NCBI GenBank assembly: GCA_017501665.1
Contig: JAFVWM010000038.1
Span: forward strand, 69,252-133,251
DNA: 64,000 bases
Direction: 5' to 3'
DNA from: Alphaproteobacteria bacterium
GTDB lineage: Bacteria; Pseudomonadota; Alphaproteobacteria; RF32; CAG-239
Of this stretch, positions 48,050 through 60,039 are shown one piece after another. The translations under genes were made by a program, and so were the position numbers. Below the pieces are notes generated by a model, which saw only the letters and a list, made by a program, of their open reading frames with translations, did not search any database and had not been told where the DNA came from. Each line of letters starts with the position of its first letter. Positions within the stretch are counted from its first letter, which is position 1.

Positions 48050-48136
48050 GCGCTTGTGGCGGAACAGGTAGACGCTGCAGACTTAAAATCTGTTGGCCGC
48101 AAGGCCGTGCCGGTTCGATTCCGGCCTAGCGCACCA
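48050..48136 (+). tRNA. tRNA-Leu (anticodon UAA), class II with long variable arm and encoded CCA.
   Basis: D-arm 'ggcggaacaggtagacgc', anticodon loop 'cuUAAaa', long variable arm 'gttggccgcaaggccgtgcc', T-arm 'ccggttcgattccgg', 3' 'gcacca'. There is one mismatch in the acceptor stem. Confidence 0.85.
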
Positions 48137-48283
48137 TTTAAAAAAGTCCTCTTTATGAGGGCTTTTTTAATTGGTATGATATATCAGAGTATCGAAGCGG
48201 CACGGTGCCGGTTTGAACCGCAGTTCGCAGGCGAACGGAGTGCGCCGGTCAAATTTTTGAGCGAACAAGGTCGGCGAAGCCAT

Positions 48284-48338
48284 TCCGGCCTAGCGCACCA
48301 ATTTGGAGAGGGTTGGCAAAATTTTTTGCTAACCCTTG
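48284..48338 (+). repeat. Direct repeat of the last 18 nt of tRNA-Leu, fused to att-like repeat A; the left boundary of the island stack.
   Basis: 'ttccggcctagcgcacca' is identical to tRNA positions 48119-48136. It is followed by 'atttggagagggttggcaaaattttttgctaaccct', an imperfect hairpin. Confidence 0.8.
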
Positions 48339-48627
48339 ATTTTTAAGGCTTTGCGTCGGTTCGATTGATTTCAAACGGTTACAAATTGTAACGGTTTGTT
48401 ATTTTAGAACGTTTTGCTAGTGTCAGCAAAACGATATTCCTTCCTTTTAATTATGGCGAATTTTCTACAATTAACTCAAACATATCGAATTCGACACCTT
48501 TAAGATTAGAAAAAATCCCCATACAAAATCAAACAAATTTTAATTTTTGGTTGAATTTCAAAACGTTTTACTTTAGCCTCAAGGTATTGTTATCTCCTAA
48601 ATTTAGAGCTAAAATATAAAAGATATA

Positions 48628-49734
48628 ATGAGGACACAAATGGCTAAAAGTAAAATTATGAAAAAAAATAAAAAAGAAGTTATTTATGAAGATAAATTAA
48701 ATTTATTTAAATTAAAACTTCAAGAACTAACAACTGTAGTACAAATTTATAATCCAACAAGTTCCATACTAGACATAAAGTTAGTTGATATCATAGATGA
48801 GTTAGATTTAGATAATACTGAATACTTTACTATTTCCTACTTTTATAATGGGTTAAATAAAATTTCTAGAATATTAGAAGGAAACCCCAACGACATTCAC
48901 TATACATTATGGGTTATAGTTTGCGCAACTTATGAAAGATTCTTAAAATTTAATGATTCAAAAATTTTTACCTATTTTGAAAAACTTTATTCCGGAAAAT
49001 ATTATTATAAAATATTTTCAAAAGGGAGTGGTACGACACAAAAAATGCTAGAATTACAAGCGGAGGAAAAGCGCTTTATTACAGAGAAATTAGCATTTTT
49101 GATAAATTCTAAAAAAATAAACGATATCATAGAACGCATAACAAATCCTGATGATAAGTTTATAACAATGTGCGATAAGTTAGATTCAAAAGAAAAAAGT
49201 ATTGATTCTAAGTTAGAAAAATATCAAAACCGAGCAAATGAAATTGTTAAATTCATAAAAGAACAACAAACAAAATTAAATTTTGTAGGGTTAGGTAGTG
49301 CCTTTAAACAAATAACAAAAGAAAAAAATACTGTTAAAAATAATTTAGAAAGTTACTTATTTATTACTTTCATAATATTAATAGTTATTCCTTTATCTAC
49401 AGCTATTGCAATTTTCTGTTGTGGCAAACCCAATTACTATATTTATATTCCTCTTGTAACGATAGAGCTTCTTCTGTTGTATGCGTTTAGATTGTTCTAT
49501 CAACAATATATGTTTATAAAATCAGAACTACTTCAAGTTAATTTAAGACACAGCTTATGCGCCTTTATTGAGTCATATATGGAGTTTAAGAAAAATAATA
49601 AAGATAACACAGTTGATTTATTTGAACAACTTATCTTTAGCAATATTATATCTGATGAAAAGAAAGTTCCTGCAACGGTTGATGGTTTAGATAGTATTGC
49701 AAATATAATACAATCAATTAAAGGTAGAACATAG
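48628..49734 (+). CDS. Hypothetical protein with an N-terminal soluble coiled-coil-like domain and two C-terminal TM helices; first gene of the island.
   Basis: Extremely AT-rich and Lys/Ile/Asn-rich. TM helices 'YLFITFIILIVIPLSTAIAIF' and 'IYIPLVTIELLLLYAFRLF'. No recognised motif. Confidence 0.5.
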   Translation: MRTQMAKSKIMKKNKKEVIYEDKLNLFKLKLQELTTVVQIYNPTSSILDIKLVDIIDELDLDNTEYFTISYFYNGLNKISRILEGNPNDIHYTLWVIVCATYERFLKFNDSKIFTYFEKLYSGKYYYKIFSKGSGTTQKMLELQAEEKRFITEKLAFLINSKKINDIIERITNPDDKFITMCDKLDSKEKSIDSKLEKYQNRANEIVKFIKEQQTKLNFVGLGSAFKQITKEKNTVKNNLESYLFITFIILIVIPLSTAIAIFCCGKPNYYIYIPLVTIELLLLYAFRLFYQQYMFIKSELLQVNLRHSLCAFIESYMEFKKNNKDNTVDLFEQLIFSNIISDEKKVPATVDGLDSIANIIQSIKGRT

Positions 49735-49857
49735 AACTATTGCAAAAAATTTATTGGAATAAATTATATTTCTTATAAAATTGATGAAAAACTTGATTCT
49801 TTCATAATAAGTCAGTAAATTGACGTAATCTATAACACAAGTTTGTGGGCCTAAAGT

Positions 49858-51153
49858 ATGACAAAAATAAAAAAAGAAATTACTGAAGATAATGAAAAAA
49901 TAAAGAAGGCAAGAGTGGCTGTCCAAAAAAAGGGTCTTAAACTTTCCAATGGGGAAATTATTGAAGAAAAAATATCATCACAGACATGGAAAGAAAAAGA
50001 ATTTAAATATCCTACTAAAACAATTCGAATTGGAACATGTTTTAGTGGTATTGGTGCAATTGAACACGCTTTTCAACGATTGAGATTAAACCATAAAATA
50101 ATATTTGCTGGTGACATTGATGAAAACTGCCGCAAAAGTTACTTAGCAAATTATAAGATATCTGAAGATGATTGGTTTTCTGATATCAGAGATTTCGATG
50201 CAAAAAGATATAAAAATAAAATAGATTTTTTAATAGGAGGAGCTCCATGCCAAGCATTTTCAATGGTCGGTAAAAGATTGGGGTTTGAAGATGCAAGGGG
50301 AACTTTATTTTATGAATTTGCAAGAATCATAAAAGAGACTCAACCAAAAGTTTTTCTGTTTGAAAATGTTAAAGGAATGCTAAATCATGATAACGGGAGA
50401 ACATGGAAAATAATTCACAGTATTTTTGAAGAGCTCGGATATGACATACATTTTCGTGTCTTAAATAGTAAAGATTATGGAATTCCTCAGCACAGAGAAC
50501 GTTTGTATTGTTTGGGGTTTAAGAAAAAAAGAAAATTTTTATTTCCAGCCCCTATAAAACTAGAATATACAATGTTTGATTTTTTAGAAGATTATGCAGA
50601 TTCAAAATATTTTCTAAAAGAGAAAGGCATAAAATTTGTAACTAGTCATAAAAATAAAACAAAATGCTACACTCAAATAAATGGAGACATAGCACTTTGT
50701 CAAAAAAGAAATCAAGAATTTAATTGGCACGGAGATTTTATCTTTCACCCTATTGATGAAAGTATTGATAATGAACAATATGATGAGTTTGTTTTTAACG
50801 TAAAAGATGTTGAAGAAAAATATTATCTATCTGAAAAAGTTGCAAAATATGTTTTAGCAGGAGGAACAAAAAACTTCAAGACATCTACTAAAACTGATTT
50901 AGAAATAGCTCGCCCATTATTACAAACAATGCATAAAATGCATAGGGCAGGTGTTGATAATTATGTAACTCATAACAAAGGAAGAATTAGAAAGTTAACA
51001 CCAAGAGAATGTCTAAGGTTAATGGGATTTAAAGATAGTTTTAATATTGTAGTTTCAGATACTGCGACATATCAACAAGCTGGAAATAGTATAGTTGTTG
51101 ATGTTCTTATAGCTTTGTTAAGACAGTTAGATATAACGGAATATGGTGTGTAA
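49858..51153 (+). CDS. DNA (cytosine-5)-methyltransferase.
   Basis: Motif I 'FSGIGA', motif IV 'GGAPCQAFS', motif VI 'ENVKGM', motif X 'QAGNSI'. Confidence 0.9.
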   Translation: MTKIKKEITEDNEKIKKARVAVQKKGLKLSNGEIIEEKISSQTWKEKEFKYPTKTIRIGTCFSGIGAIEHAFQRLRLNHKIIFAGDIDENCRKSYLANYKISEDDWFSDIRDFDAKRYKNKIDFLIGGAPCQAFSMVGKRLGFEDARGTLFYEFARIIKETQPKVFLFENVKGMLNHDNGRTWKIIHSIFEELGYDIHFRVLNSKDYGIPQHRERLYCLGFKKKRKFLFPAPIKLEYTMFDFLEDYADSKYFLKEKGIKFVTSHKNKTKCYTQINGDIALCQKRNQEFNWHGDFIFHPIDESIDNEQYDEFVFNVKDVEEKYYLSEKVAKYVLAGGTKNFKTSTKTDLEIARPLLQTMHKMHRAGVDNYVTHNKGRIRKLTPRECLRLMGFKDSFNIVVSDTATYQQAGNSIVVDVLIALLRQLDITEYGV

Positions 51154-52174
51154 TATGATTATAAATGATACTAAATTCAAGATAGTAGATACATTTGATA
51201 ATTTTATGACTGTTCCTGATTGTTTTGTAAAAAATCCAAACAAAATAGGAAGTGGTAATGGAGAAGCAAAATTTTACATTTCAAATAAAGATGAAATGAG
51301 AAGATTTTATGGAGGGGAAGGCTTTACAAAAAAATGTTTTTTATTAAAACAGGATTTAATAAACTATATGATAGCCGTAAAAAATGAGTATATTACACCG
51401 TCCCAAGATTATAGAAACAAAGAAGAATTTCCTACTTTATGGGATAAACGGATGTCTTTAATCAATTCCCAACCTGATGTTATAATGTTTGATATTATTG
51501 ACCAAACTCAGATTGAAGGACCTAGAGGATACGTTAACTCTAGGGATTTTGGATATGAACTCATACGAACAATAGCACTTCCTTTAATCTCATATTTGTC
51601 TGCAATGGAACTAAAGGATAAGAAAGGGGCAACATTGTATTATTGGAAATTATTTGCTGATTTTGAAGCTATTGCACAAAAAAAATGTGAACCTCTTGTT
51701 TTTAGTTACGGTAAGAAGAAAAGAGAAAACGATGAAGAAGACAAAGATAGTGAAATAATTTTACCACTAGAAACCCCGCAACAAAAAGAGATAAGATATG
51801 CAAGAAATGGACAAGGCAAATATAGGGAAACACTATTAGAAGAATGTCCCTTTTGCCCTATTACAATGATAAATGATGAACGTATACTAATTGCTAGCCA
51901 CATAAAACCATGGGCTGCGTCAAATGATAAAGAAAAAATTGACCCTCAAAATGGCTTCATGCTTTCACCATTATATGACAAACTATTTGATAGAGGTTTT
52001 ATAACATTTACAAACGATAGAATCTTACATATTTCAAAATGGATATCACCTAAGAATATTCAGCGAATGGGACTAAAAGATAAGATGTTTATACAGCAGC
52101 TGCCTTTAACTAAAGAACGTTGTTGTTACTTAGATTTTCATATATCATCGGTCTTTCATGGAATAATTGAATAA
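51143..52174 (+). CDS. HNH-family endonuclease, the candidate type II restriction enzyme partner of the MTase.
   Basis: 'CPFCPI...HIKPWAASNDKEKIDPQNGFMLSPLYDKLFDRGFITF' is an HNH-type motif. The gene overlaps the MTase by 11 nt. Confidence 0.65.
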   Translation: MVCNMIINDTKFKIVDTFDNFMTVPDCFVKNPNKIGSGNGEAKFYISNKDEMRRFYGGEGFTKKCFLLKQDLINYMIAVKNEYITPSQDYRNKEEFPTLWDKRMSLINSQPDVIMFDIIDQTQIEGPRGYVNSRDFGYELIRTIALPLISYLSAMELKDKKGATLYYWKLFADFEAIAQKKCEPLVFSYGKKKRENDEEDKDSEIILPLETPQQKEIRYARNGQGKYRETLLEECPFCPITMINDERILIASHIKPWAASNDKEKIDPQNGFMLSPLYDKLFDRGFITFTNDRILHISKWISPKNIQRMGLKDKMFIQQLPLTKERCCYLDFHISSVFHGIIE

Positions 52175-52564
52175 CAAACAAATACAACAGATAAAAGAGC
52201 GGCATTTTATGATGTCGCTCTTTCTAGTTATGTATATGCATAACTTCACCCTTTCAAGCAATCTTTACCTTAAATAGTATTGATTACGAATGTTTTGTTT
52301 TGCTTGATATATCAAGCATTCTGTTAAAAAGCAATTTGCTGCAATATAGCATACATCTGCAGGTGTCCTAGCTTGAGTAAAATCATAGCACGTTTTTGCT
52401 CTTGACACCCAAGATAGTACAGTTAACAATTCTAACACATTTCTCAACCTCCAATCAGAACCCTAGACTTGATATAACACAACAACATATTGTGTTTTAT
52501 CGGATTCGTAATACATTATATTGAAATAAATTTAGATTGTCAAATTAGCGAAGTCTAATATTTC

Positions 52565-53095
52565 TTAGGCATTGGTCACATCTCCCATCATCCTCTCCAC
52601 ATCCTCCAAATCAATACCTTTTGATGATAAAACAGACATCAAGGTTTCTAGTGCGTTTTTGTAGCTATCTCGCTCATTTTCTAATGATTTGATACGGATT
52701 TGAGCCTCGTTTAGCTCATTTTTATAGTAGTTTGCCCATTGCTCTTGGTCTTGGGCATCGTGTTTTAGCATATTCTTTTCAATGTTGCCCATATTAACAC
52801 CGTCTAGAGGCATAAATTCGCGTCCGGAGAGCGATAATTGTCTTCTGCCCTTATCATCACAGTTTTTTATCAAATAACCCTCTCTGACGAGTTTATTAAC
52901 CATAACTTTGGTTGATGAAGTTTTACAACAAATCGCCTTTGCCAATGTCTCGTTATTCATGAAAAATTTGAAGTTGCGATTGGTTTTATAACCGATATAT
53001 GTTAAAATTAAACGCTCTGTAATAGTGAGCTTTCTTTGTCTTTCACTCATTTTAATTCCTTTAATATGTATTTTAACATGAGTATTTATCGGCAA
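52565..53095 (-). CDS. Winged-helix DNA-binding protein, a putative iteron-binding autoregulator or replication-initiator-like protein.
   Basis: 'LTITERLILTYIGYKTNRNFKFFMNNETLAKAICCKTSSTKVMVNKLVREGYL' looks wHTH-like. A C-terminal coiled coil is present. The iteron array lies immediately upstream. The start may be at 53050 (MSERQRK). Confidence 0.5.
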   Translation of the reverse strand: MPINTHVKIHIKGIKMSERQRKLTITERLILTYIGYKTNRNFKFFMNNETLAKAICCKTSSTKVMVNKLVREGYLIKNCDDKGRRQLSLSGREFMPLDGVNMGNIEKNMLKHDAQDQEQWANYYKNELNEAQIRIKSLENERDSYKNALETLMSVLSSKGIDLEDVERMMGDVTNA

Positions 53096-53632: not shown

Positions 53633-53827
53633 ATGTCAGTGATTTTGAACGAAAATATGACTGATGAGCAAAAACTGGATGTGATTCAAATGTTGATTGA
53701 TAAGGGATGTGATGTAAATTGGCTCAATTACCAACGCGAAACAGCACTTCTTATCGCTTTGGAACGAATAGAAATAGATATTGCTAATTTGCTTTTAGAC
53801 AATGGTGCAGTGATTTATAAGGAATAA
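53633..53827 (+). pseudogene. Short ankyrin-repeat-like ORF, likely a gene remnant.
   Basis: 'ETALLIALERIEIDIANLLLDNGAVIYKE' resembles an ankyrin repeat consensus; only 64 aa. Confidence 0.35.
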
Positions 53828-55367: not shown

Positions 55368-55769
55368 TTAATCGCACCTCGTAACACCTAGTGAATTTGT
55401 TCGGCATTTGGTTTTCTTGCCGTTTTGGTCGGTGTAGGTTGTAACGCCTAATGAATTTGTGCGAGCTTTTATAGTGTTGCCTTTATTATCTTTATAAGTG
55501 GTCGTCCCAAGCGAATTTGTTTTTGCTGTGCCTCTTGTGCCATCGCTACCGGTATAGGTTGTTGTACCCAAAGAGTTGGTTCTTGCTTTTACTTTATTTC
55601 CTTTGTTATCGGTATAAGTCGTTACACCGAGTGAATTTGTGCGAGATTTGATAATCCGACCGTCATTATCCTTACAAGTTGTAACCCCCAAAGAATTGGT
55701 AGAGCAACGCATATCAGCCCAAGCCGAGCCGACACAAAACATACAAATCAAAGCAATTACATACCGCAT
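55368..55769 (-). CDS. Small secreted protein made of six 21-aa tandem repeats.
   Basis: Signal peptide 'MRYVIALICMFCVGSAWA'. Repeats are of the form 'RTNSLGVTTYTDNKGNKVKA' (63-nt DNA repeats). Confidence 0.6.
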   Translation of the reverse strand: MRYVIALICMFCVGSAWADMRCSTNSLGVTTCKDNDGRIIKSRTNSLGVTTYTDNKGNKVKARTNSLGTTTYTGSDGTRGTAKTNSLGTTTYKDNKGNTIKARTNSLGVTTYTDQNGKKTKCRTNSLGVTRCD

Positions 55770-55773
55770 CCAA

Positions 55774-56505
55774 TCATTCCTTTTTTCCAAAAATATAACA
55801 AATAGGATTTGCCATACCGTATTTCTTAAATGAATTATGCTTGTTTACATATTGTGGGTATTGAGACGAGACATCAACACCTTCAAATAACCAACGTTTT
55901 CTTCCTCTTTCATCAGTCTCATTACTCCACTGAAGCGGTTTATATACAGCTCTAAATATTCCATGGTATTCACTAATTACTAATTCAATATCTTTTATCT
56001 TATTAGAATTTAACAACCAGCTTTTTCGTGTCGCCTCATAAACATCTTTGGCTGTTTCATAAGTTTTGTTTATATTAACAATCAAACAATTATGAAAAAT
56101 ATCTTCTTTTGCTATGTCATCAACACAATAAAAGGCTTCAATTTCAGATATTGATTTCATACCGTTATCAAGAGAATGATATCCACCCATAATATTTAAT
56201 AAATTTCTATCATTCCAAGATTTTGAAGAGAAAATATCAATCAATGCGGCTTCTAAATGAAATGCTTCAATTTCTGTTAGACCATGTCTAATGATAAATT
56301 TTTGAACATTTGCTCCCGATGATTTTATGTCCGCAATTCGTTTGTTTTTCTCTTTTTCCGCAACTTCTTGTTCGTGAGCAAATACTCTATTACCACAACC
56401 TTTGCCAATATAGAATATTTGTTTATTGCGAGAATCAATTAAACAGTATACATAATAACCAATACTTTCTATTGTAGCTTTAGAAAATTCAATAACATCA
56501 GACAT
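55774..56505 (-). CDS. GIY-YIG nuclease-domain protein with a C-terminal domain of unknown function.
   Basis: 'YYVYCLIDSRNKQIFYIGKGCGNRVFAH' is the GIY-YIG motif. The start is taken at 'MSDVIEF', which is preceded by 'aggag'; the ORF track begins earlier, at 56556. Confidence 0.65.
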   Translation of the reverse strand: MSDVIEFSKATIESIGYYVYCLIDSRNKQIFYIGKGCGNRVFAHEQEVAEKEKNKRIADIKSSGANVQKFIIRHGLTEIEAFHLEAALIDIFSSKSWNDRNLLNIMGGYHSLDNGMKSISEIEAFYCVDDIAKEDIFHNCLIVNINKTYETAKDVYEATRKSWLLNSNKIKDIELVISEYHGIFRAVYKPLQWSNETDERGRKRWLFEGVDVSSQYPQYVNKHNSFKKYGMANPICYIFGKKE

Positions 56506-56638
56506 CAAAACATCTCCTAACATCATTATCTTACAAGCTATATAACGAAAAAACAAAGAAAAAAGTTCAGTTTATGCTATAATTTATAGCTTTTTTAACA
56601 AACTGTGCTTTATCATTTTTATAAAGAGTGAGGTTTAG

Positions 56639-58552: not shown

Positions 58553-58870
58553 TTGATTAAGGATAATATAATGTCTTTTATACTAAAGTCCCCATTAGAA
58601 GTTATGCAAGATATTGCTTATAAAGCGAAATCCAAACGTTTAGAGCAGAATTTAACACAACAAGGGTTGTCTGTTCGTTCAGGTGTGAGTTTGGGTACAA
58701 TTAAGCGTTTTGAGCGTTTTGGCGAAATATCTCTTAAATCTTTAATTGATATTGCTTTAACTTTAGGCTGTATGAATGATTTTGAAGAACTTTTTAAGGA
58801 TAATCAAAAACCACAAAGCCTTTTTGAAAAAAAATCTGACCAAACACGCAAAAGAGGAACAATAAAATGA
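58553..58870 (+). CDS. hipB: HipB-like XRE-family HTH antitoxin.
   Basis: 'LTQQGLSVRSGVSLGTIKRFERF' is an HTH; 4-nt overlap with hipA. Confidence 0.75.
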   Translation: MIKDNIMSFILKSPLEVMQDIAYKAKSKRLEQNLTQQGLSVRSGVSLGTIKRFERFGEISLKSLIDIALTLGCMNDFEELFKDNQKPQSLFEKKSDQTRKRGTIK

Positions 58871-60039
58871 GGTTAAATGTATTTTTGAATACTTATGGAA
58901 ACCGTCTTTTTGTAGGTGTTTTGGAAGAACAGAAGCAACGTATATTTTTTGAATATGCGCCGGAGTTTATTCAATCAAACATTCCTTTATCACCTTTTAT
59001 GCTTCCTTTAAAACAACAAGTTTATGAAGATGAAAAATACACTTTTGATGGTTTATTCGGTGTATTTAATGATAGTTTACCGGATGGTTGGGGGTGCTTA
59101 TTATTAGATAGAAAACTACAAAAAAAAGGTTTGAGTTATAATTCAATCACTCCTTTGCAACGATTATCTCTTATCGGCTTAAATGCTATGGGTGCTTTAG
59201 AATATGAACCCATAACCGAAATTGATAAAGAATTTGTCGGAGATATAGTGTTGGATGCTTTATCAATGGAAGCCGGCAAAATTTTACAAGGCAACAGTTC
59301 AGATGTTTTAGATGAACTTTTAAGCCTTAATGGGTCTTCAGGGGGAGCAAGACCCAAAATCGTAGCACTTGTTTCAAAAGATAAACAAACATTGATTCAC
59401 GGAAACCTTACACAAGAAAATTATGAGCCTTGGTTAATAAAATTTAACTCATCTCTTGATGACAAAGATATCGGAGCAAAAGAATACATTTATTCATTGA
59501 TGGCTAAGGATGCAGGAATTGAAATGCCTGATACCTTTTTGTTCCCTTCAAAAGATAGTAGTGGACATTTTGGTGTAAAACGCTTTGATAGAACAACAGA
59601 AAGTAAAATTCATGTTCATACAGCATGTGGATTGTTGCATGCAAGCCACCGTTTTGCTTCTTTAGACTATACATCTCTCTTAAAATTAACAGCAATTTTA
59701 ACCAAAGATGTCCGTGAAGTTGAAAAAATGGTCAGATTAATGATATTCAACATCAAATCCAATAATAAAGATGACCACAGCAAAAACTTTTCATTTATGC
59801 TAACAAAAGATAATGTCTGGAAAATGACACCGGCATACGATTTAACTCCATCTCAAGGTTTAAATGGTGAACAAACAGCAATGGTAAATGGTAAAGGAAA
59901 AAATATCACAAAAGAAGACTTTATAAAAGTTGCAGAACCTTTTGGTTTTGATGCTAAAAAAGTAGAAGAAATTGTAGAACAAGTTGATGATGCTTTATTC
60001 TGTTACAAAAAATATGCAAGCAATGTTGGGATTAAGTAA
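58867..60039 (+). CDS. hipA: HipA-family Ser/Thr kinase toxin.
   Basis: HipA N-terminal region 'LSPFMLPL', 'FGVFNDSLPDGWGCLLL'. Catalytic 'NNKDDHSKNFSF' matches the D-x-H-x-KN-S motif. Confidence 0.85.
   Translation: MRLNVFLNTYGNRLFVGVLEEQKQRIFFEYAPEFIQSNIPLSPFMLPLKQQVYEDEKYTFDGLFGVFNDSLPDGWGCLLLDRKLQKKGLSYNSITPLQRLSLIGLNAMGALEYEPITEIDKEFVGDIVLDALSMEAGKILQGNSSDVLDELLSLNGSSGGARPKIVALVSKDKQTLIHGNLTQENYEPWLIKFNSSLDDKDIGAKEYIYSLMAKDAGIEMPDTFLFPSKDSSGHFGVKRFDRTTESKIHVHTACGLLHASHRFASLDYTSLLKLTAILTKDVREVEKMVRLMIFNIKSNNKDDHSKNFSFMLTKDNVWKMTPAYDLTPSQGLNGEQTAMVNGKGKNITKEDFIKVAEPFGFDAKKVEEIVEQVDDALFCYKKYASNVGIK

Follow-up and report, generated by a model that had tools for sequence, protein, structure and literature searches.

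Ronin of E. coli ECOR55, which consists of RonA and HsdMS, is a decoy/guardian system in which a membrane effector is held in check by HsdMS, and its proposed damage to the inner membrane backs up restriction (bioRxiv 10.1101/2023.04.06.535777). PrrC and PARIS are established guardians of restriction–modification (R–M) systems, and proteins of the PrrC/RloC type are accessory suicide effectors, encoded within or beside type I R–M operons, that act when restriction is countered (PMC12707154). Effectors with two transmembrane (TM) helices, i.e., SLATT proteins and those of CBASS, Pycsar, retron Ec48 and Panoptes, combine a membrane hairpin with cytoplasmic flanks and are expected to depolarise the membrane. 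Moron genes of P2-like phages, such as old, tin and fun/Z, form single, non-essential, AT-rich genes on the opposite strand of the late-gene region, and their hotspots have been described (PMC9122126). Here, we compare with these systems a gene referred to as X, which lies in a stretch of 64,000 nucleotides (nt), hereafter the window, from contig JAFVWM010000038.1 (positions 69,252 to 133,251) of a metagenome-assembled genome (MAG) labelled 'Alphaproteobacteria bacterium', together with the C5 cytosine DNA methyltransferase (C5-MTase) and HNH endonuclease genes that follow it (GenBank MBR2922878-80, in this order).

Functionally, X is most like the R–M-linked suicide effectors (RonA and PrrC) and the two-TM effectors of signalling-based defence, and it carries the defining features of none of them. 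It shares with RonA a membrane-helix protein tightly linked to type I MTase/specificity genes; however, RonA is described as a protein of 61 amino acids (aa) that spans the membrane once and lacks a sensor domain, whereas X comprises 364 aa with an N-terminal domain, a stalk, two TM helices and a conserved tail. Moreover, Ronin typically lacks hsdR, whereas X operons retain a nuclease-helicase, and X is also found alone and with type IIG, DpnII-type and C5/HNH systems. The position within or beside type I R–M operons is common to X and PrrC/RloC; however, PrrC is a soluble ABC-ATPase-like tRNA nuclease, whereas X is a predicted membrane protein that matches no ATPase or nuclease family in Pfam or NCBIfam. 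X resembles the two-TM effectors in its hairpin, its cytoplasmic flanks and its defence-island context, but no cyclase, SMODS, reverse transcriptase or other signal generator lies consistently beside it, and it carries a large variable domain of its own. Its homologue in P2-like phages has the position and composition of a moron gene but occupies the gpS/gpV (Orf30) slot, and the terms orf30 and gpV are absent from PMC9122126.

X and the R–M pair of the window are neighbours and not one module, since the pair occurs elsewhere without X, X occurs with other R–M systems, and the segment between X and the downstream HTH_36 gene is variable. The initial annotation, whose three open reading frames (ORFs) on the + strand are all present, had proposed X either as a standalone antiphage or abortive-infection effector or as an accessory factor of the R–M system. 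As a part of this R–M module X has to be given up, because the pair is found without it and X accompanies four other kinds of R–M system or none. X itself looks like an undescribed single-gene anti-phage protein, judged from its sequence and its neighbours, and literature searches found no publication describing its family.

Architecture and family of X

The reading frame of X opens at 48,628 and had been taken as a 368-aa protein; the ORF is as described, but the probable start is the ATG at 48,640, which has GAGGA 7 nt upstream and gives the 364 aa of the GenBank entry. X has no match in Pfam, NCBIfam or PADLOC-DB v2.0.0 (0 families at E <= 0.1), which agrees with the earlier statement that it contains no recognisable motif; its C-terminal half, however, matches phrog_9373 (residues 163-365 on positions 170-385 of 388, E 2e-36), a phage protein family of unannotated function and the sole family to which X belongs. 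Word-indexed search retrieved 45 clusters of the X family, and an exhaustive profile search returned at least 818 representatives at 50% identity. Of these, 517 fall below 1e-30, and almost every representative is 340-400 aa long. The named members, from Undibacterium, Jeongeupia, Pectobacterium, Pseudoalteromonas and the phage-plasmids of E. coli and Klebsiella, are all entered as 'hypothetical protein'.

The coordinates of the predicted domains are given in the table. The Kyte-Doolittle profile peaks at 2.76 in TM1 and 1.84 in TM2, and an N-in/C-in topology is predicted because K/R-rich flanks lie on both sides of the hairpin; both large domains are thereby predicted to be cytoplasmic and the periplasmic loop to comprise about 7 residues. 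The two TM helices had been placed at the C-terminus; the helices (241-264 and 272-292) are there, but they are followed by a conserved tail of 76 residues. An AlphaFold model built on a 136-sequence alignment (predicted local distance difference test, pLDDT, 88; predicted TM-score, pTM, 0.61) contains the alpha/beta domain (here residues 20-172), a continuous helix (174-265) that ends as TM1 and, after a turn of 4 residues, a return helix (270-323) opening with TM2, and two short C-terminal helices, so that the membrane part takes the form of a helical hairpin with a hydrophobic tip. Conservation peaks in the LNFVGL..AF segment before TM1, in TM2 (P275, E280, Y285, F287 and R288) and above all in the cytoplasmic tail, with Q303, R307, F332 and G353 unchanged throughout the 136 diverse members.

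Searches for remote relatives gave little. Foldseek comparison of two models (pLDDT 75 and 88) with PDB and BFVD returned generic helical hairpins only (best E 0.16-0.5), and the family profile gave only coiled-coil noise against PDB sequences. A SLATT fold had been suggested for X; the profile search with X and 136 members at E <= 1 gave no SLATT match, nor any other consistent Pfam family. Matches to DUF2207_C in 12 of the 136 members were set aside as TM-segment noise.

Table. Positions of the features discussed, in window coordinates unless a locus is named
Feature	Position	Strand	Basis
tRNA-Leu(taa), integration target at the island edge	48050..48136	+	ARAGORN
Exact copy of the 3' 18 nt of the tRNA, TTCCGGCCTAGCGCACCA, att-like scar	48283..48300	+	repeat search
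Palindrome of 27 nt, CAAACGGTTACAAATTGTAACGGTTTG (core GTTACAAATTGTAAC), upstream of X	48372..48398	strandless	relatives in locus L009
Conserved 5' region of X, presumed own promoter/operator	48510..48592	+	90% identity to the region upstream of X in L009
Gene X, 364 aa, MBR2922878.1, 'hypothetical protein'	48640..49734 (ORF opens 48628)	+	phrog_9373
X, N-terminal alpha/beta domain, hypervariable, proposed sensor (residues 17-172)	48676..49143	+	pLDDT above 90
X, cytoplasmic stalk helix running into TM1, conserved LNFVGL..AF (residues 174-240)	49147..49347	+	model, conservation
X, TM hairpin (TM1 241-264, loop CGKPNYY, TM2 272-292)	49348..49503	+	hydropathy, conservation
X, cytoplasmic C-terminal tail, conserved (76 residues, 293-368)	49504..49731	+	conservation
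C5 cytosine DNA methyltransferase, 431 aa	49858..51153	+	PF00145, TIGR00675, PADLOC MTase_II
HNH_2 endonuclease, presumed cognate restriction enzyme, 339 aa	51143..52174 (probable start 51155)	+	PF13391
HTH_36 regulator/replication-initiator-like gene, island backbone	52565..53095	-	family match
p318, gene of ~318 aa after X in relatives	L001 11117-12073; L002 11841-12791; L027 8078-9040; L037 3169-4122; L006 11115-11729 (shorter relative)		

Genomic contexts of X and of the R–M pair

The alphaproteobacterial clade of X was compared in 18 distinct contexts, at 35-90% identity to X; intact R–M genes lie within 300 nt of X in 13 of them, and remnants of such genes in two more. In nine lineages, X directly follows a type I-like pair composed of a nuclease-helicase gene (~825 aa) and a fused gene for a methyltransferase (MTase), an Eco57I domain and a target-recognition domain (TRD; ~830 aa), with a gap of 0-3 nt or a small overlap where gene ends were read; PADLOC assigns these partners to REase_I (1.2e-61) and MTase_I (7e-100). 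In two lineages, a type IIG enzyme (~1,220-1,250 aa) precedes X by 6-21 nt; X comes directly after the stub of a type IIG gene in two others, and after a DpnII-type R–M system with an AAA ATPase in one; only in the lineage of the window does X come first, followed by the C5-MTase and the HNH nuclease. The remaining three lineages have no adjacent R–M genes; HEPN_AbiU2/PLD or T5orf172/ResIII/RelA-SpoT genes neighbour X in two of them. In at least ten contexts, the gene in front of X, at most ~21 nt away, encodes a type I-like or type IIG enzyme; in the window, X stands upstream of the C5-MTase/HNH pair at a distance of 123 nt.

Beside the intact X genes of two loci, the type IIG stubs (L019, 9632-9985, and L038, 35-733) consist, in one case, of a 117-aa C-terminal piece and, in the other, of a DUF7149 fragment fused to an aminotransferase fragment; in both loci, the restriction enzyme has been lost while X has been retained. 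In L033 (3550-6274), the fused MTase-TRD gene ahead of X is split into ORFs of 650 aa and 259 aa, which could reflect a frameshift or a genuine separate specificity subunit.

X islands are found at tRNA-Gln, tRNA-Val, tRNA-Pro or tRNA-Leu in different genomes and have a common backbone of HTH_36 and ankyrin genes. The HTH_36 gene keeps the same relative place after X in L001, L002, L027 and L016, and the segment between the two is a variable slot, filled in the window by the C5/HNH pair and in several relatives by a gene of ~318 aa. In several type I-like operons, this gene, p318, starts ~12 nt behind X; the window lacks it. Neither Pfam nor PADLOC recognises p318, which may contribute another part to the module of those relatives.

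Outside this clade, X homologues occupy accessory positions of phages. In P2-like Yersinia phages, the homologue is a lone gene on the opposite strand between gpV and gpS, i.e., in the non-essential Orf30 slot of P2; P2 Orf30 itself was rejected as a homologue (hhalign probability 0.2%). About 220 phage-plasmids of Klebsiella and E. coli carry an X homologue in a fixed slot adjoining the primase gene, and one viral contig has one near a terminase gene. A scan of metagenomes with a narrow X alignment yielded 5 loci. At the DNA level, a search of E. coli with the Yersinia X gene found no copy, and one with the Klebsiella gene found phage-plasmid copies only.

The front of X varies far more than its back. 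Within the alphaproteobacterial clade, mean pairwise identity is 27% in the N-terminal domain and 64% in the C-terminal module. Across six operons that share one conserved backbone, the helicase (78%) and the MTase core (80%) are well conserved, the TRDs reach 45%, and X reaches 29% in its N-terminal domain and 68% in its C-terminal module; similarity of the N-terminal domains does not follow that of the TRDs (r = 0.03). X in the window and its standalone copy in L009 are 90% identical over 83 nt of 5' non-coding DNA and 93% over the last 496 nt, with no detectable DNA similarity over the ~660 nt that encode the N-terminal domain. Because this dissimilar segment lies between conserved flanks, replacement of the N-terminal domain as a cassette is indicated, and the 5' region is conserved in, and common to, both copies. 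Similarly, in two Klebsiella phage-plasmids (L026, 6449-7615, and L044, 6764-7930), X is 52-72% identical over residues 1-280 and ~90% thereafter, while the flanks of the slot are 97-98% identical. A hypervariable N-terminal domain on a conserved backbone is, at the level of sequence comparison, an arms-race signature. In addition, the phage-plasmid slot next to the primase gene contains many X alleles, with tblastn matches starting at residue 103 to 264 in ~215 plasmids.

The R–M pair of the window is, by comparison, ordinary. The C5-MTase scores 277.8 bits with PF00145 (1.8e-82; cut-off 22), 288.8 bits with TIGR00675 (7e-86; cut-off 100.65) and 8.6e-93 with PADLOC MTase_II, and its translation contains the full set of catalytic motifs (FxGxG, PCQ, ENV, QxRxR and GN) as FSGIGA, GGAPCQAFS, ENVKG, QHRER and GNSIVV. 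The nuclease matches PF13391 (HNH_2) at residues 238-289 with 43.2 bits (cut-off 21), as well as the PADLOC models for HNH (3e-21) and type II REase (3.8e-12). An overlap of 11 nt had been noted between the two genes; their ORFs do overlap as noted, but the nuclease probably starts at the ATG at 51,155, since residue M5 is invariant in 28 homologues and MBR2922880.1 is 339 aa long, and with this start a gap of 1 nt replaces the overlap. The genes are tightly coupled in both cases. The nuclease belongs to a family of ~330 aa with ~60% identity across MAGs of Bacteroidales, Firmicutes and Elusimicrobia, a spread across phyla that is typical of horizontally mobile R–M genes. Its nearest solved relative is 6yex, with the HNH catalytic domain alone in common; 6yex belongs to a modification-dependent enzyme, and the HNH_2 protein may be modification-dependent as well.

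Two viral contigs (L041 and L042) carry orthologues of the MTase (73% and 57%) directly upstream of orthologues of the nuclease (56% and 42%), with the two alignments overlapping by 5 nt, and neither of these contigs has an X homologue. The viral nuclease orthologues were found by an alignment-based scan; a single-sequence scan of viral sequences returned none. The designation of the pair as a type II R–M system is supported by family scores and by conserved adjacency in two viral contigs, and the pair has all sequence hallmarks of type II systems with a C5-MTase and an HNH nuclease, together with a conserved two-gene arrangement. Because orthologous pairs occur elsewhere without X, the pair is a conserved, autonomous two-gene module of type II-like R–M, the enzymology being inferred.

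Competing readings of X

We propose, tentatively and with a probability of about 0.45, that X is an autonomous sensor-effector membrane protein acting by abortive infection or exclusion. The autonomy is supported by close X proteins standing beside different R–M types, by the 5' region of its own, by the four tRNA sites and by the existence of the R–M pair without X. In this reading, X and the R–M pair lie side by side, each independent of the other, in a defence/toxin island that an uncultured gut-type alphaproteobacterium carries at its tRNA-Leu gene. The variable N-terminal domain would sense a phage-derived cue, sensing would alter the stalk and the hairpin, and the conserved module would oligomerise and either depolarise or permeabilise the inner membrane (abortive infection) or otherwise block infection there. 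Under its own 5' control region, X would act autonomously. Its preferred place is at the end of type I-like and type IIG operons, where co-transcription with restriction enzymes would make it a second layer of defence behind restriction.

The defence reading is strong but not airtight. In support of the proposal that X is a standalone effector, it is linked to defence genes in most alphaproteobacterial contexts and found in phage accessory slots; the presence of X without defence neighbours had been named in advance as grounds for refuting the proposal, and such contexts do exist, at 3 of ~24. The three that count against it are two glnS-linked Burkholderiales loci without visible defence neighbours and a Catenovulum megaplasmid, in which X lies among sugar-catabolism genes with no visible defence neighbour. 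Further points weigh on the same side. X showed no homology to a proven defence protein (PADLOC, 0; Pfam, none across 136 members; PDB, none by sequence or fold). The nine type I-like associations are not nine independent events, as they may share a single ancestral operon, and X, being so steadily and tightly coupled to MTase/TRD genes, could depend on them functionally instead of being autonomous. Constitutive membrane insertion is likely given the very hydrophobic TM1, which leaves the gating step entirely hypothetical. Finally, the most conserved part is the cytoplasmic tail and not the TM hairpin, as might be expected if X binds a conserved host partner instead of forming a pore.

The main rival takes this coupling at face value and regards X as a guardian or accessory of R–M systems in the manner of Ronin/RonA or PrrC. 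The adjacent restriction/methyltransferase complex would keep X inactive, and once phage anti-restriction proteins put this complex out of action, X would be free to damage the membrane; alternatively, X would itself sense those proteins. Its charge in the window would be the C5-MTase/HNH pair, or else X would be an orphan whose type I-like or type IIG partner was lost. The placement of X 0-21 nt downstream of, or overlapping, an MTase/TRD-bearing gene in at least ten lineages and two enzyme classes is what such a role would produce, the tight linkage persists over divergence down to 35-39% identity in X, and Ronin, PrrC and PARIS provide precedents. However, the N-terminal domain is only 24-28% identical where the helicase and MTase core are 87-90% identical, without co-variation with the TRDs (r = 0.03). 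X also stays intact after decay of the enzyme gene, and it is solitary in phages, phage-plasmids and chromosomes. Close relatives adjoin unrelated R–M types: in the pair P0002 and P0003, X is 70% identical in the N-terminal domain and 88% in the C-terminal module, yet R–M systems of different types lie adjacent. In the window, moreover, X lies upstream of an R–M system of a different class, 123 nt away, with a conserved 5' region of its own. We consider the guardian role unlikely.

Two other explanations detach X from restriction altogether, and each is rather improbable. As a superinfection-exclusion protein, X in the inner membrane would keep phage DNA out, or halt an early step at the membrane, and leave the cell alive, as Sie-type proteins of prophages do. 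Its moron positions in P2-like prophages and phage-plasmids are typical for exclusion genes, the likely constitutive membrane insertion is compatible with this role, and a variable domain could track variable phage ejection proteins; however, with both large domains predicted in the cytoplasm and a periplasmic loop of ~7 residues, contact with the phage would have to be intracellular, and a gene so strongly linked to R–M operons outside prophages, in other islands, would more typically belong to intracellular defence. Alternatively, X might be non-defence cargo, i.e., a membrane toxin or addiction factor for the island, a protein that anchors DNA enzymes to the membrane or regulates them, or a membrane protein suited to a particular niche, and lie near R–M genes merely because both are common island cargo. 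The three contexts without defence neighbours, the lack of likeness to any known defence family, and the HipBA, GNAT and other non-defence cargo of the window island would fit this explanation. Against it, 13 of 18 contexts place X next to R–M genes, with translational coupling, which is far above the expectation for random cargo; the N-terminal domain bears an arms-race signature, and no antitoxin-like partner is conserved beside X.

A further reading, which we regard as speculative and probably incorrect in its full extent, holds that X represents a new and widespread class of R–M-coupled membrane 'second-line' immunity, in which the N-terminal domain recognises phage anti-restriction or other early proteins and the C-terminal module collapses the membrane potential. 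N-terminal cassettes would be exchanged between conserved flanks, as with the target-recognition domains of HsdS. If true, type I-like, type IIG and type II systems, as well as prophage cargo, would all come under the guardian logic of Ronin and PrrC throughout the Proteobacteria.

X is a credible, currently uncatalogued defence candidate in R–M operons, defence islands and prophage cargo slots. If X is anti-phage, current defence catalogues lack an extensive family, of at least 818 clusters at 50% identity, whose range extends from gut Alphaproteobacteria and Burkholderiales to Yersinia prophages and the clinically common phage-plasmids of Klebsiella and E. coli. Its position directly behind restriction genes would offer a natural system for studying restriction layered with a membrane-level back-up, and the cassette-like variants of the N-terminal domain a ready-made specificity set for finding phage triggers.

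The tRNA-Leu island and its cargo

On the + strand, the tRNA-Leu gene is followed by X, the C5-MTase and the HNH nuclease at the edge of a low-GC island. The earlier placement of X at the island edge and its description as very AT-rich are both borne out: GC content falls from 0.376 over the upstream 48 kb to 0.30 in the island and 0.254 in X, X is the first gene after the tRNA, and the 3' 18 nt of tRNA-Leu occur in 2 copies within the window against 0 expected, the second at 48283-48300. The tRNA-Leu, this 3' repeat and the drop in GC mark X as the gene that opens a tRNA-borne island. The 146 bp between the tRNA and the repeat of its 3' end (48137-48300) look like a remnant of an earlier integration or excision. 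A 96-aa 'ORF' at 48056-48346 overlaps tRNA-Leu and is spurious, and a search for a decayed R–M gene within the 490-bp spacer upstream of X gave noise only. Promoter-like hexamers lie at 48587-48629, just 3' of the conserved 5' region.

The 27-nt palindrome upstream of X has relatives in four intergenic gaps of L009 (6303-6329, 9293-9319, 10303-10329 and 13241-13267), which flank the units [p217-p249-X], [T5orf172] and [ResIII helicase] and thereby resemble cassette boundaries; it is absent from the remaining 42 loci searched. It could serve a shared regulator as operator, terminate transcription or be a site of recombination.

Between the ends of the HTH_36 and HNH genes, the - strand carries a perfect sigma-70 consensus (TTGACA-17 nt-TATAAT, 12/12) at 52515-52543, directed antisense toward the 3' end of the nuclease gene and a 60-aa ORF (52265-52447) without a family match; this site may drive an antisense regulator of the restriction gene.

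Further downstream, an ankyrin fragment of 64 aa (53633-53827) belongs to the ankyrin-repeat genes that recur as island backbone in the window, L001, L002, L017, L027 and L033; in L017, a 413-aa ankyrin protein lies directly upstream of X. A 140-aa protein (55368-55790, - strand) without a Pfam match combines an N-terminal, signal-like hydrophobic segment with about eight tandem repeats of the form 'TNSLG(V/T)TTY.D..G'. A GIY-YIG protein (55774-56556, - strand) matches PADLOC PD-T4-3 (1.4e-41) and phrog_5356 (1.2e-46) and is a second island defence gene, of known type. The downstream cargo also includes GNAT genes and a toxin–antitoxin pair of the HipBA type (58553-60039, + strand), in which an HTH_3 gene overlaps a gene for a HipA-family kinase (HipA_C, 7.1e-49); HTH_3 and HipA pairs of a similar kind are found in the X-bearing loci L001 and L012.

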